Notes under the pieces: model-generated
Seen by the model: only the letters and a program-made list of their open reading frames with translations
Told to the model about the DNA's origin: nothing
Database searches by the model: none
Position numbers and translations under genes: made by a program
IMG/VR virus record: IMGVR_UViG_3300025913_000019
Strand: one strand, 5' to 3'
Source of the DNA: a virus
Taxonomy: Duplodnaviria; Caudoviricetes
Length of the DNA stretch: 64,000 nt
Shown here: positions 8,226-42,592 of the stretch, in pieces
How the letters are laid out: each line of letters begins with the position of its first letter
Position numbering within the stretch: the stretch's first letter is position 1

Positions 8226-8966
8226 ATGTCAAACTCCCAAACCCTCACGCTCGCCGAGGCAAACGATCGGCAACTGGGGCTCGGCTTCATCGAGTGGCTG
8301 CGCTACAAGGTCGAGTCCGACGAGCCGATCCCGCGCCGTGAGATCGTGCAGCTGCTCGAAGCCGACGGCATCGCTGGCGTCCAGTACTGGGCTCCGGACG
8401 ACGTGACCGACGAGACGGCGTCGCCCGTGACCGACGAGGACATGCCGGTTCGGTTCGTGCCTGACAACGACGACGACCGCAAGGTCGCCGACGGCATGCC
8501 CGATGATGACGAGGAGTTCGAGGATCTGCCGGCGGCGAGTCTCGACTCGACGTGGTCGGCTGCCGACCACGATGCCTACAATATCGAGACCTTCTACGTC
8601 ACGGTGCTGCTCGAACTCGCGCGAGTGAGCAGGGGCTTCATCCACACCGCGGAGCGCACGGTGCGTGAGAGTGCGGACCTCGGGTCCGTCATCACCAACG
8701 ACGGCATCGGTTGGACCTGCGGATTCAAGCTCTCTGCCGCTGACGAACTCGAGTGCCGCAAGATCATCATCGCTGCCCTCGAATTCTTCCCGTACCTGCA
8801 GCCTCTGTTCGGCCTGCGTGTCCGGCACGTTCGCAACGTGCTGTTCGATGACCAGCGACTGGTGCTCGAATGGCGGCCGTCCGTCAGCTCGACGGAAGAC
8901 ACGGAGCTCGACGAGTTCATCGACGAGCTGAAGGAACGCACCGACCTCATCTGGCAGGTGGACTGA
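8226..8966 (+). CDS. Hypothetical acidic protein
   Basis: Co-oriented, coupled start. Confidence 0.75.
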   Translation: MSNSQTLTLAEANDRQLGLGFIEWLRYKVESDEPIPRREIVQLLEADGIAGVQYWAPDDVTDETASPVTDEDMPVRFVPDNDDDRKVADGMPDDDEEFEDLPAASLDSTWSAADHDAYNIETFYVTVLLELARVSRGFIHTAERTVRESADLGSVITNDGIGWTCGFKLSAADELECRKIIIAALEFFPYLQPLFGLRVRHVRNVLFDDQRLVLEWRPSVSSTEDTELDEFIDELKERTDLIWQVD

Positions 8967-35784: not shown

Positions 35785-35860
35785 GCTGTCTTAGCTCAGT
35801 TGGTAGAGCATCTGCCTTGTAAGCAGGAGGTCAAGGGTTCGAGTCCTTTAGGCAGCACCA
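35785..35860 (+). tRNA. tRNA-Thr(UGU)
   Basis: 76-nt canonical cloverleaf, loop CTTGTAA, GGTTCGAGTCC, encoded ACCA. Confidence 0.96.
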
Positions 35861-36339: not shown

Positions 36340-36519
36340 TCCTAGGCTCCAAAACCCTTCGGGGTAATAGCGGGAGACCGGGAGGCATGCCTCCCGGCAC
36401 CTATTCCGGGGGTGTCCAATGGGGGCCGCTAGTAGGGCGGGGCAAGGTACGAGACGCTGACGCGTTGCTTCCGAGCCCTGTGGCCAAACGCGCCAGGTTC
36501 GAATCCTGGAACCCGACCA
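36340..36519 (+). ncRNA. Structured RNA ending in T-arm plus ACCA (tRNA-like 3' end, no canonical cloverleaf)
   Basis: CCAGG-TTCGAAT-CCTGG-AACCCG-A-CCA; upstream hairpins. Confidence 0.5.
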
Positions 36520-36523
36520 ACCC

Positions 36524-36654
36524 GAGTGCAGAGCTACGGGCCGAGGACCATGGGCCGTAATGGCGGTCACCGAGAACAAGCGGGAAGAAGTTGGTCACCT
36601 GACGGAGACCAGACCGGCGATGCTTGCGCGGCCTCGGTTCGTAGCTCTGCACTC
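36524..36654 (+). ncRNA. Unknown RNA closed by a 23-bp stem
   Basis: 36524-36546 pairs with 36632-36654 (21 WC + 2 GU). Confidence 0.6.
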
Positions 36655-36686: not shown

Positions 36687-37067
36687 ATGAAGATCAAGCC
36701 CCGCAACGAGCACGTCGTCGTTCGCCGCATCCCCAGCCGTGAGAAGAGCAGCGGCATCATCATCCCGGGCCAGGAAACCGAGCGCGATCTCTTCGCCGTC
36801 ACCGCGGTGGGCCCCGGCGGCTTCACACCGGCCGGCACGCGTGCACCCATCGAGCTCGACGTCGGTCAGCCGATCGTTCCCGGCATGCTCGTCTTCGTCC
36901 GCCCCGGCGACTACGAGATGTTCGACTCGGACCCGAACAGCCCGGGCGACGAAAGCCTGCGCATGGTGATCCCGCAGTCGGCCATCATCGGCGTCGAGGT
37001 CGACGACAACGACCAGCCGCTGATGTTCGCCGAGCCCGCGCAGTCGATGATCGCGACCCTCAACTGA
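36687..37067 (+). CDS. groES: GroES-like co-chaperonin
   Basis: MKIKPRNEHVVVRR..SSGIIIPG..AVTAVGPG. Confidence 0.85.
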   Translation: MKIKPRNEHVVVRRIPSREKSSGIIIPGQETERDLFAVTAVGPGGFTPAGTRAPIELDVGQPIVPGMLVFVRPGDYEMFDSDPNSPGDESLRMVIPQSAIIGVEVDDNDQPLMFAEPAQSMIATLN

Positions 37068-37080
37068 CCAAGGAGCTGCC

Positions 37081-37380
37081 ATGAGCACAACCTGGAAGGA
37101 CGCGCTGGCGGACAAGCCGAGCGTCATCGATTTCGTGCAATCCATCGTCGACCAAGTTCCGACCACGGGCGGCGCCCAGGACGCATTCGAGATGGCGCTC
37201 AACGGCCTGGCGACCTTCGTGCCCGAAGAGATCCAGATCAAGGCCGACAAGTTCGACGCGCTGGTCGACGAAGGCGTCGACGAGTGGGCCGGCTACGAGT
37301 CCGCCATGGCCGAGTTCGAGGACGAGGACGGCGATGACGACTCAGATTCGGACGACGGCGACGAAGACGACGAGGACTGA
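37081..37380 (+). CDS. Small acidic protein
   Basis: SD AAGGAG; D/E tail. Confidence 0.7.
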   Translation: MSTTWKDALADKPSVIDFVQSIVDQVPTTGGAQDAFEMALNGLATFVPEEIQIKADKFDALVDEGVDEWAGYESAMAEFEDEDGDDDSDSDDGDEDDED

Positions 37381-37382
37381 CC

Positions 37383-37661
37383 ATGGGCTGGCGCTCGTGG
37401 TTCGGCCTCAAGGAGCCGGTCCGGTTCATGGATGAGAGCGACGAGAAGGTTCGTGGCGCCCTCACCCTGCTGTCCCAGCTCGGTAGCAACAACGTCCACT
37501 GGAACGACGTGGACGTGATGGCGACGGCGAAGGCCGCGCTGTTCGAGGAACCCAGGTACGCACGCGCGGGCCTGGAACGCATCGCTGCCGCGGTGTCGCC
37601 CGGTGATCTCTTCATCAACGGAGTTGACATCGGCCTCCTGGCCGAGCGCGGCTTGCAATGA
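37383..37661 (+). CDS. Hypothetical protein
   Basis: Coupled start. Confidence 0.6.
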   Translation: MGWRSWFGLKEPVRFMDESDEKVRGALTLLSQLGSNNVHWNDVDVMATAKAALFEEPRYARAGLERIAAAVSPGDLFINGVDIGLLAERGLQ

Positions 37662-37668
37662 GCAACGA

Positions 37669-37708
37669 AGGTACCCGGCACCTGGTTCGATCCCAGGGCC
37701 CGGTATCT
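37669..37708 (+). ncRNA. T-loop-capped minihelix
   Basis: AGGTACC/GGTATCT + GGC/GCC + CCTGG-TTCGATC-CCAGG. Confidence 0.35.
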
Positions 37709-37717
37709 CCGGCAGGG

Positions 37718-37832
37718 TGGAGAGTGACGAAATTGGTAGACGTGCTGCCTTGGCAAGGGTGGTGCCCCTCGGGTCTCGGCCGCCAACTGAGACAATGAGG
37801 ACCGCGTGCTGGTTCGAGTCCAGCCTCTCCAT
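37718..37832 (+). tRNA. Non-canonical type-II tRNA-like gene (GGC loop, about 43-nt variable arm, no encoded CCA)
   Basis: TGGAGAG/CTCTCCA acceptor, Leu-type D arm ACG-AAATTGGTAGA-CGT, T arm GCTGG-TTCGAGT-CCAGC. Confidence 0.6.
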
Positions 37833-37841
37833 TTCTCCGAA

Positions 37842-37850
37842 ACGGTAAAG
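37842..37850 (+). promoter_or_regulatory. Candidate phage promoter motif ACGGTAAAG
   Basis: Intergenic, before structured region. Confidence 0.55.
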
Positions 37851-37857
37851 AAGTAAC

Positions 37858-38075
37858 ATCGCGTTGCAGCGATAGGGCAAGCTGATCGTGCCCTGGTTTG
37901 CGCCTGACCAAATTCGGCGTTCGCGCTCGTAGTGGTCGGCCGTAGTTGACATGTGCCTGGCATGTCTGCGCCTAAGCACTCTGTGCACAGATTAGAGGCC
38001 CGCCGGGTTGGTTGCAGATCCTTGCCGGCGGCCACCTACATGTAGCTTGCGTGCCAGACACGCGAGCCTGATTCC
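37858..38075 (+). ncRNA. Candidate structured RNA
   Basis: Non-coding gap with several stems (37858-73, 37874-94, 37957-64/38050-57, 37997-38033). Confidence 0.4.
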
Positions 38076-38299: not shown

Positions 38300-38760
38300 A
38301 GAAGTCCCGCCTCCCCAGGGACGACGTAGTGTCCGAGCAATCGGGCGTGTGTCAAACCATAGGGAACATGGTCGTGTGTCGGCACTCGCCGACGAGAGTC
38401 TGAAGCTGACGGATGTTGGACGGGGGTTCGATTCCCCCCGGCTCCACCACTAGCGCCTGCGTACATGCGGGTGCTAGTGATGGGGCCGACCAGGTTTCGA
38501 CAGCGTTGCTGATGTGGAGGACGACGACTCGCGCGTATGGCCTAGTCTAGCTCAGCGTTACAGAGCCGACAGGGTACAAAACTAACTGCCAACGACGAGC
38601 AATTCGCTCAGGCCCTCGCGGCCTAAGCGCAGAACAGCTGCGGGTTCTACCTAGGCAACTAGGTGTGTACGCAGCCGGGCCGGACACAGCGGATAACCTC
38701 TGCTGTGTGTCTGAGTAAGCCGGGGCCGCAAGGTCCAGGTTAGGGACGGTGGGCTTCGGC
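38300..38760 (+). ncRNA. ssrA: Circularly permuted two-piece tmRNA (outer ends uncertain)
   Basis: Acceptor half ends CGGCTCCACCA at 38449; 5' half GGGGCCG starts 38482; G3-U70; tag ANDEQFAQALAA* at 38588-38626. Confidence 0.92.
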
Positions 38761-40903: not shown

Positions 40904-41203
40904 ATGCAGTATCCGCGAATCGTGATCGACGGCACGGACTGCCAGACACCGAGTGGTGATCTCAAGTCGGGCTGGATCATCACCTACGAGGTGACGCTCG
41001 ACGCTCAGGGTCGTGAGCAGCGCAGAGAGAAGAAGCGTCAATGGGCGCAGGACCCGAAGCCCGTTGTTTTCGACAACGGTATGACCTCGCAACAACATGC
41101 GGCGGCTGTCGCACGTGGCGAGAATCCCGGACCCCTGGTCAAGACAGGTATCTTCTATCCGCACAAGATGCTGGAGCTGATGCCAACTGAAGGAGTGCAC
41201 TGA
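40904..41203 (+). CDS. Hypothetical protein
   Basis: SD AGGAG. Confidence 0.6.
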   Translation: MQYPRIVIDGTDCQTPSGDLKSGWIITYEVTLDAQGREQRREKKRQWAQDPKPVVFDNGMTSQQHAAAVARGENPGPLVKTGIFYPHKMLELMPTEGVH

Positions 41204-41625
41204 TGTCAACACGTCGTGGTTTCCTGGGCGCCATGCTCGCAGCAGCCGTGGCACCCGCCGTCGTCAGAGCCGAGTCGCTGATGAGGCTGCCGTCGGCTCC
41301 GAAGATCCTGCGTACCTACTGGGATGGCTCGAACTGGCGTTGCGAGCCGGTGACTGTCGAGTCGCAGATAACTGCCGACCCGTGGTACACGCCGCCCGAG
41401 CGCATCATTCACGCACGGCCCTACGTCTCGGGTGACGAGATCAAGACGGCATCGGGCATCGACGAATTCGTCGACCGCGCGGTCGAACAGCTCTCGCGCG
41501 AGACCGGCATCTCCAAGCCCATGCTTCTCGGCCAGTCGTACAGCGATGGTCTGTACGCGGCATCGCGGCAGCCCTCGAAGTTGCCGTTCCTCATCGAGCG
41601 CGGGTTCATCAAGCGTCGAGTCTGA
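41203..41625 (+). CDS. Twin-arginine (Tat) leader protein 2
   Basis: MSTRRGFLGAMLAAAVAPAVVRAESLMR. Confidence 0.7.
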   Translation: MSTRRGFLGAMLAAAVAPAVVRAESLMRLPSAPKILRTYWDGSNWRCEPVTVESQITADPWYTPPERIIHARPYVSGDEIKTASGIDEFVDRAVEQLSRETGISKPMLLGQSYSDGLYAASRQPSKLPFLIERGFIKRRV

Positions 41626-41626
41626 C

Positions 41627-41803
41627 ATGGCACCGACCCATGTCTCAACAGATTGCAACGGCATGATCGCAGTCACGGTCATGCCGGAAGCAGAGGAGTC
41701 TGCAGCGGAGGGTAGCGAGCAGACCGAAGAGGAGCGCGGGCCAGACCTCAAAGACTGTAAAGAGGATCGTCCGCGTGACAATCAACTCAACCAAAGCCGT
41801 TAG
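41627..41803 (+). CDS. Small acidic hypothetical protein
   Basis: TGACATG junction. Confidence 0.4.
   Translation: MAPTHVSTDCNGMIAVTVMPEAEESAAEGSEQTEEERGPDLKDCKEDRPRDNQLNQSR
41754..41762 (+). promoter_or_regulatory. Candidate phage promoter motif ACTGTAAAG
   Basis: 44 nt before glycosyltransferase. Confidence 0.55.
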
Positions 41804-41806
41804 CAC

Positions 41807-42592
41807 ATGACCATCACTGCCAAAGAGATCGGAGAGAACTACCCGCTCTCCATCGACGACGCCAAGGAGTACGCTGGCCGCACCATCGCGAGCCGCGCCT
41901 TCTACCACACCGTCTTCTCCGCCGTCAAGAACAAGCTGCCGCTGTCCGTCGTCCGCATGGGTGATGGCGAGCGTCACCTCTTCATCGACTGCGCGACTGC
42001 TGCCGCCAACAAGGTGTCTGGCCTCCCGGTCGATTCGTTCGACACCGCGTGGCGCACGCGCATGGGCATCGAGGGCATGACCTTCGAGCAGCTCAACGAT
42101 TCGATGCGCGCGTCGATCGCTCTCACCAACTACTTCGGGCCGAACGTCAACGGCCTGATGCAGCCCAACTACAGCGTCTACCCGTGGTACAAGATCCACG
42201 GCAAGGGTCAGCCGCTGGTCGACAACTTCTTCGTCAACGAGTGGGACCTGGAACATCGCACCGCGCTCCTGAAGGCGGCCGGCAATGTCCTGGTGCTGCA
42301 CGCGAACCCGGTGACGGCCATCACGTTCGCACGCCGTGCGCGGGCCTACCTCAACGTCGGCATCCGCCACGTGAGCCTCAAGTCCTGGCGTGATGCCGAC
42401 GCGGCCCTCACGGAGTGCGCGAAGTGGGACTACCCGCTGGTCCTCGTCAGCGCCGGTCCGGCCTCCAAGTGGATCATCCCTGGGATCGCCCGACAAGGCA
42501 AGGTCGCGCTCGACATCGGCAACGCCATGGACCACTGGCTGCTGCTCGAACTCTACAAGGCCGACCCGTCGAAGCTGGACGCCGTCAAGTGA
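41807..42592 (+). CDS. GT-D-fold glycosyltransferase-like protein
   Basis: SVVRMGDGE and LVLVSAGPASK..GKVALDIGN match GT-D (DUF1792) signatures. Confidence 0.75.
   Translation: MTITAKEIGENYPLSIDDAKEYAGRTIASRAFYHTVFSAVKNKLPLSVVRMGDGERHLFIDCATAAANKVSGLPVDSFDTAWRTRMGIEGMTFEQLNDSMRASIALTNYFGPNVNGLMQPNYSVYPWYKIHGKGQPLVDNFFVNEWDLEHRTALLKAAGNVLVLHANPVTAITFARRARAYLNVGIRHVSLKSWRDADAALTECAKWDYPLVLVSAGPASKWIIPGIARQGKVALDIGNAMDHWLLLELYKADPSKLDAVK

Follow-up and report, generated by a model that had tools for sequence, protein, structure and literature searches.

A 115-nt tRNA-shaped element with a Leu-type body closes an operon in the RNA island of a phiRSL1-like jumbo phage

The stretch of DNA analysed here (64,000 nt, hereafter the window) encodes a terminase, a portal protein, a UvsX-like recombinase and an SSB. 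Its terminase shares 54% identity with the one from Ralstonia phage phiRSL1 and 45-52% with the terminases of Burkholderia and Achromobacter jumbo phages. The window is part of the genome of an uncultured jumbo phage of phiRSL1-like type, and its nearest relative is the IMG/VR contig G001. Within the window lies a 3-kb RNA island with a tRNA-Thr, T-arm modules, a permuted tmRNA and a 115-nt tRNA-like element that closes an operon. On the plus strand the order is ORF134, tRNA-Thr(UGU), ORF142, two structured RNAs, a GroES-like gene, a gp5.9-like gene, a 92-aa ORF and the 115-nt element. The island's genuine tRNA-Thr (35785-35860, 76 nt, UGU) reads the rare codon ACA, and reading rare codons is the usual pattern for phage tRNAs. 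The features at the end of the operon are as follows.

37383-37661, plus strand: 92-aa ORF, final protein gene of the unit ended by the 115-nt element (GC3 0.85)
37670-37710, plus strand: minihelix, an acceptor-like stem on a consensus T arm CCUGG-UUCGAUC-CCAGG (sequence, T-arm scan)
37718-37832, plus strand: tRNA-like gene of 115 nt, full cloverleaf with extended extra arm (Rfam RF00005, ARAGORN with introns)
37718-37724, plus strand: acceptor 5' strand UGGAGAG, pairing with CUCUCCA at 37825-37831
37727-37743, plus strand: Leu-type D arm, 3-bp stem ACG/CGU and 11-nt loop with A14, G18 G19 and A21 (sequence)
37745-37762, plus strand: anticodon-like arm, 5-bp stem including two G-U pairs, 8-nt loop UUGGCAAG (covariance model alignment, MFE)
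37763-37807, plus strand: 45-nt region at the variable-arm position (sequence, MFE fold)
37808-37824, plus strand: T arm GCUGG-UUCGAGU-CCAGC, 5-bp stem, consensus loop UUCGAGU (T-arm scan, covariance model alignment)
37825-37832, plus strand: acceptor 3' strand CUCUCCA and U73, followed by UUC without CCA (sequence)
37842-37851, plus strand: ACGGTAAAGA, one of six plus-strand copies of ACNGTAAAGA, a candidate phage promoter (motif count)

The minihelix lacks a D arm, an anticodon arm and CCA, has one C-C mismatch in its stem, ends 7 nt upstream of the 115-nt element and is identical in G001. Downstream, ACGGTAAAGA begins 10 nt after the element. The window has six copies of ACNGTAAAGA (27572, 34889, 35130, 37842, 41754 and 43325), all on the plus strand, against 0.03 expected, and by this count the motif is probably a phage promoter. 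No terminator-like site was found downstream of the element on the plus strand; a small peptide gene follows, and then a complete permuted tmRNA at a distance of 525 nt. In the contig G002, a homologue of the 92-aa ORF (43% identical) is followed by an ordinary tRNA-Thr and tRNA-Pro, which there occupy the syntenic slot.

Other components of the island were also recorded. The two structured RNAs lie at 36340-36519 and 36524-36654 on the plus strand; the 3' end of the first is a consensus T arm followed by A-CCA, and relaxed ARAGORN models this RNA as a tRNA with a 73-nt insert. Compared with G001 they contain a single difference, in the first, against 9.7 and 7.1 expected at the silent-site rate. 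The island proteins comprise a GroES-like co-chaperonin (36687-37067, plus strand) and a small protein with a T7 gp5.9-like RecBCD-inhibitor motif (37081-37380, plus strand). Circularly permuted tmRNA genes were located at 38357-38717 of the window, at 6330-6775 of L213 and at 7139-7530 of L215, and the tag ANDEQFAQALAA occurs in both the window and G002. G001 has 115 extra bases (8314-8428) at window position 38366, just before the tmRNA; these adopt a tRNA-like fold in which the D arm is of the AGCUCAGGUGGUAGAG type, the loop at the anticodon position has 5 nt, the T loop departs from the consensus and CCA is absent.

Rfam model RF00005 matches 37718-37832 (plus strand) end to end over model positions 1-71, at 34.0 bits and an E-value of 3.2e-5. 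The gathering score of the model is 29 and the element is reported with relaxed filters only; neither a default Rfam run nor default ARAGORN reported it. When introns are allowed, ARAGORN calls a tRNA-Ala(ggc) with a 21-nt intron and keeps a mismatched stem. The E-value of the covariance model supports a match beyond chance; the fold energy by itself is weak evidence (z = -1.94, with 10 of 200 shuffled sequences folding equally well). A protein-coding reading of 37718-37832 was rejected: overlapping ORFs show a GC3 of 0.52-0.69 versus 0.85-0.91 for real genes and have no Pfam match.

The acceptor stem consists of seven Watson-Crick pairs (UGGAGAG/CUCUCCA), among them U1-A72 and G3-C70. The flanking G-1 and G-2 could form G-U pairs with U73 and U74 and lengthen the helix; eight positions are paired in the MFE fold, and a helix of 8-9 bp needs these flanking G-U pairs. 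After U8 and G9 follows ACG-AAAUUGGUAGA-CGU, a leuX-type D arm. The anticodon-like stem CUGCC/GGUGG encloses the 8-nt loop UUGGCAAG; in the covariance model alignment two of its pairs are flagged as non-canonical, an alternative pairing bulges a G and leaves the 7-nt loop UUGGCAA, and the MFE fold makes the arm a 10-bp hairpin with a GGCA cap. The 45-nt region that follows forms a two-part hairpin of about 11 bp, with an outer 4-bp stem CCUC/GAGG, an internal loop and an inner perfect 7-bp stem (37773-37779/37787-37793) closed by the loop CCGCCAA. All 31 of the 31 proposed base pairs form. The bases of the tertiary core (A14, A15, G18 G19, A21, U48, U54 U55 C56 and A58) are all present, and an L-shaped core should form on this evidence.

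The first-pass annotation of this DNA had described a Leu-like D arm, a perfect T arm, a CTGCC/GGTGG stem and an 8-nt or bulged 7-nt loop, and all of these are in the sequence as stated. It had also given the extra arm its own 7-bp stem with the 7-nt loop CCGCCAA, correctly, and a length of 43 nt, where we count 45. The lack of G3-U70 and of an encoded CCA was likewise rightly noted: the pair is G3-C70, and U73 is followed by UUC.

Inside the element the loop sequence UUGGC is complementary to GCCAA in the other loop, a coincidence with a chance of 1.2-1.7%. Kissing of the two loops within one molecule is hardly possible, because the hairpins (5 and about 11 bp) are adjacent and joined by 4 nt. 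The extra-arm hairpin was also considered as a repeated mobile unit, which was rejected since it occurs in one copy within the 64-kb window.

The D arm, the T loop and the general layout match tRNA-Leu genes of related phages, for instance the tRNA-Leu(UAG) of G008. Together with the T arm and the core, this comparison bears out the earlier proposal of a type-II, Leu-derived tRNA body. Relative to the G008 gene the D, T, anticodon and acceptor stems all differ in sequence while every pair is kept, which points to long selection on the fold if the two are homologous. The differences in kind are one extra loop base, a GGC triplet, U73 for A73 and UUC for CCA; as far as the alignment goes, they are confined to the sites of decoding and charging. 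The D stem with its A10-U25 pair, rare in bacteria, recurs in a 179-nt Leu-like element of G016 and G017. An exact 20-mer of the D arm containing this stem had five scattered matches in 185,579 bacterial genomes, and no donor or host was found among these genomes by that means.

When the element is held against known tRNA classes, it has the Leu-type D arm and tertiary core of tRNA-Leu, as its alignment with the tRNA-Leu genes of the clade makes clear, but neither A73 nor a Leu anticodon: position 73 is U and the loop triplet is GGC. A tRNA-Ala would carry G3-U70, and this element has G3-C70 instead. Its stems are 7/5, with U8 and G9 in register, and do not have the 8/4, 9/3 or 8/5 geometry of allo-tRNA and tRNA-Sec; its 3-bp D stem and the lack of a UCA anticodon also set it apart from tRNA-Sec, which has a 6-bp D stem and UCA. 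A functional adaptor should have a 7-nt loop on a regular 5-bp stem, where the element offers either 8 nt in the loop or, in its 7-nt version, two mismatches or a bulged G. Finally, the insert of an intron-containing tRNA lies in or beside the anticodon loop, and here it lies in the variable arm. The Rfam search returned no intron or ribozyme family for the element, no YrlA (RF02553) match at E-values up to 10 and no tmRNA match.

Related phages recurrently carry tRNA-like genes that either contain large inserts or have no usable anticodon loop. In phiRSL1 (NC_010811.2, 188801-188924, minus strand) a 124-nt tRNA-like gene of 41 bits, unannotated in RefSeq, occupies a syntenic place, and G012 has one of 114 nt and 43 bits (204111-204224, minus strand). 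Both have the canonical loop UUGGUAC and, ahead of it, an insert at 31/32 starting with GCRUCUCG. The heptamer UCUCGGC common to the phiRSL1 insert and the 115-nt element was disregarded, as a match of seven is expected by chance at such lengths. G017 has a 150-nt Leu-type gene with encoded CCA, and the T arm of the 179-nt element of G016 and G017 is broken. In G002 (L213, 5605-5686) an 82-nt gene encodes its CCA and pairs perfectly in the acceptor, D and T arms; its anticodon loop is replaced by a hairpin with a UUCG cap, and a promoter-like ACTGTAAAGA lies just upstream. From these sequences, a class of non-decoding tRNA look-alikes in the clade is plausible.

Three further observations were made in these loci. 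In phiRSL1, weak YrlA-like and tmRNA-like matches lie 350-700 nt from the 124-nt gene. In G001 (L153, 5654-5743) a 90-nt tRNA combines a type-II, Ser-like body and a long variable arm with the anticodon UGU (Thr), acceptor GCUGAGA, A73 and CCA; it stands in the slot of the 76-nt tRNA-Thr(UGU) of the window, and from the two sequences this is a swap of the body with the anticodon kept. G022 (L220, 2162-2261) has a 100-nt tRNA of 58 bits with CCA, a class-I D arm, the loop CUUAUAC and about 26 nt in its variable arm.

Could the element nevertheless work in translation? The first-pass annotation had led with mistranslation of GCC codons or frameshifting. A working adaptor of this kind would receive its CCA from the host, be charged through its type-II body and read GCC or GCC-N, giving amino acid substitution or a +1 frameshift. 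The loop UUGGCAA does have U33, a GGC anticodon and A37, the L-shaped core is intact, and the 90-nt tRNA of G001 and the 100-nt tRNA of G022 are apparently functional, CCA-ended tRNAs with long variable arms and anticodons other than Leu, Ser or Tyr. Against this, LeuRS requires A73, which is U73 here, and AlaRS requires G3-U70; judging by its G3-C70 pair, the element cannot be an AlaRS substrate. CCA is encoded in 29 of 33 ARAGORN calls in the clade loci, the remaining four being doubtful calls, so that all convincing tRNAs of the clade encode it and the 115-nt element does not; no CCA-adding enzyme was found in five relatives. The anticodon stem, moreover, is irregular. GCC is the commonest Ala codon of the phage (518 of 14,221 codons, 3.6%, or 36 per 1000), and its mis-decoding would be harmful to the phage itself, affecting nearly every one of its proteins; this usage argues against a mistranslating tRNA, and a GC-rich host should already hold ample tRNA-Ala(GGC). 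With U73, no CCA, an irregular anticodon arm and GCC so common, mistranslation or frameshifting is not supported as the leading explanation. We regard a working adaptor as very improbable, and the specific version in which an RNA tailed by the host and charged through its long arm reads GCC or GCC-N by the 8-nt loop as slightly more so. If true, a phage would naturally encode a tRNA for recoding or +1 frameshifting.

A second possibility is that the gene encodes a precursor, from which the extra hairpin or part of it is excised and the ends rejoined, possibly by the RtcB of the clade, to give a shorter, working tRNA. ARAGORN does model a tRNA with a 21-nt intron, and several relatives (phiRSL1, G012 and G017) have inserts of 17-70 nt in or beside the anticodon loop. 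Full-length RtcB genes with E-values of about 1e-123 are encoded in phiRSL1 (40946-42115), G008 (63971-65095) and G017 (143003-144133); a search of relatives for an Rnl-type ligase found none. Against this reading, the insert of the 115-nt element sits in the variable arm, and no excision yields a regular tRNA, the ARAGORN solution retaining its mismatched stem. The splicing endonuclease family PF01974 is absent from five relatives, and the element matches neither a ribozyme nor an intron family. RtcB had no match in G012, although that genome carries an insert-bearing gene, nor in the partial G001. The product, with no CCA, U73 and G3-C70, would still be without clear identity, and we consider a spliced precursor improbable.

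The 115-nt element is identical in G001 and in the JGI metagenome contig Ga0207674_10000325, as are the spacer and the minihelix. Because the two contigs share their flanking differences they probably represent one lineage, to judge from the sequences. The G001-type variant is also present in the DNA runs X5 and X7; the reads of an RNA run matched only tmRNA-like parts from other organisms, with none over 37600-38050. Third codon positions differ between window and G001 by 5.4% overall (131 of 2422) and by 5.3% in the three ORFs just upstream, and 37659-37853 shows no difference at all. At the silent-site rate 6.2 changes would be expected in 115 nt and none is seen (Poisson P 0.002). As divergence is patchy an empirical control was added, in which 6.8% of 115-nt and 1.3% of 195-nt coding windows of an 11-kb alignment are also unchanged. 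The unchanged stretch 37659-37853 coincides exactly with the non-coding elements, and RNA elements of the island account for three of the seven longest invariant tracts. Since coding sequence also holds invariant tracts longer than 300 nt between window and G001, the comparison with this one diverged lineage suggests sequence constraint on the 115-nt element with moderate strength.

No orthologue was found beyond about 5% divergence. Queries with the 92-aa ORF returned near-identical copies only, from viral contigs, metagenome contigs and a protein collection, and an exact 34-mer returned G001 only. A covariance model of the element (R1), run on 30 related genomes, found G001, ordinary tRNA-Leu genes and a few long, low-scoring matches. 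Elements in G005 (93 nt) and G006 (150 nt) were rejected as orthologues despite a shared UGGAG.../...CUCCA top half: the first is in a different genomic place, the second lies on the strand opposite to the G006 terminase, and their T arm is common among ordinary tRNAs, 66 of 87 pattern matches ending in CCA. Apparent compensatory pairs in these two elements were not counted as evidence. A wide D-arm-to-T-arm pattern scan of viral contigs proved unspecific.

These data bear on whether the element does anything at all. It might be a young relic, a tRNA-Leu recently disabled by a variable-arm insertion, an extra loop base and loss of its 3' tail, functionless but undecayed. Its covariance model score is low (34 bits versus 41-75 for the tRNAs of the clade), CCA is absent, position 73 is U, the anticodon is not that of Leu, and the share of equally invariant coding windows of its length has been given above. 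A recent relic is plausible also because the island turns over fast and holds tRNA debris: the deletion-like minihelix adjoins the element, the Leu-like element of G016 and G017 is visibly broken, and the tRNA content varies even between near-identical phages. On the other hand, all proposed pairs are intact and the insert itself makes perfect helices; four successive tail positions differ from ACCA with no stem position unpaired, unlike point decay; and the close fit of the invariant tract to the non-coding elements is not what a relic leads one to expect. A decaying pseudogene, the outcome that the first-pass annotation had named as speaking against its proposal, is not seen, the helices being intact and unchanged in a lineage with about 5% silent-site divergence. 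On balance we think a functionless relic rather unlikely, though clearly less so than a precursor or an adaptor.

The reading that we tentatively prefer, with a probability of about 0.45, is a conserved non-decoding tRNA-shaped RNA that derives from a phage tRNA-Leu and stands at the end of an operon. Of the features behind the L-shape of a tRNA, the acceptor/T-arm minihelix, the elbow of D loop and T loop, U8, A14, A15 and U48 are kept; of those required for charging and decoding, A73, CCA and a regular 7-nt loop with a Leu anticodon are missing or altered. In favour of this reading, damage to tRNAs or translation plausibly matters to a clade that encodes both RtcB and a tmRNA. The alternative of a tRNA decoy, mentioned earlier beside mistranslation, comes close to this tRNA mimic. 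We infer its expression, processing and role as follows. The element would be co-transcribed as the last module of an operon beginning at the ACTGTAAAGA motifs around 34.9-35.1 kb. Host RNase P may recognise it as a tRNA on the 5' side, and the 3' side would be handled by RNase Z or exonucleases because CCA is lacking. The RNA would then persist as a stable tRNA look-alike. It could serve to mark the upstream message at its 3' end or to protect that end, or it could tie up tRNA-binding proteins of the host.

Clusters of tRNA genes in phages are commonly interpreted as supplements for codon usage, and the RNA island argues for more than that: this jumbo phage and its relatives appear to keep several non-decoding tRNA-shaped RNAs beside a tmRNA, with an RtcB ligase in the clade. 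If expressed and stable, such look-alikes would be natural tRNA scaffolds for RNA processing or for counter-defence against host systems that target tRNAs. Should the 115-nt element be a relic, it would document fast remodelling of tRNA genes in a phage lineage.

Among known systems, tRNA-Leu (the leuX type and the tRNA-Leu(UAG) of G008) is alike in the AAAUUGGUAGA D loop with its 3-bp stem, U8 G9, the A15-U48 pair, the T loop UUCGAGU and an arm at the variable position. The 115-nt element differs from it in U73 instead of A73, the lack of CCA, U1-A72, GGC in an 8-nt or bulged loop and a variable region of 45 nt versus about 12-15 nt. Another comparison is with allo-tRNAs and other non-canonical long-arm tRNAs (Krahn et al. 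2020), which share with the element a type-II-like body and an anticodon mismatched to the amino acid of that body. The allo-tRNAs reportedly have 8/4 or 9/3 acceptor/T stems and regular anticodon loops and can be charged by SerRS, whereas in the element the stems are 7/5, the loop is irregular, position 73 is U and CCA is lacking. Frameshift suppressors of the sufD and sufJ types have 8-nt anticodon loops and are otherwise normal, chargeable tRNAs with CCA and cognate identity elements; the extra anticodon-loop nucleotide is common to both, but the CCA end and the cognate identity elements are missing here. The tRNA-like domain of tmRNA, the Y RNA YrlA, mascRNA and the tRNA-miRNA units of gammaherpesviruses keep the acceptor/T arm and elbow and drop decoding, and in this the 115-nt element resembles them. 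Unlike the tmRNA and YrlA modules, it has no match to their Rfam families, its acceptor stem has the open end of a genuine tRNA, and the permuted tmRNA nearby is a separate, complete gene; no TROVE/Rsr gene was found in relatives. In T4, species 1 and 2 (rnaC and rnaD) are non-decoding structured RNAs among the phage tRNA genes, co-transcribed and co-processed with them, and are not full cloverleaves. The 115-nt element would likewise be a non-decoding RNA amid tRNA genes, and differs from them in being a full cloverleaf.
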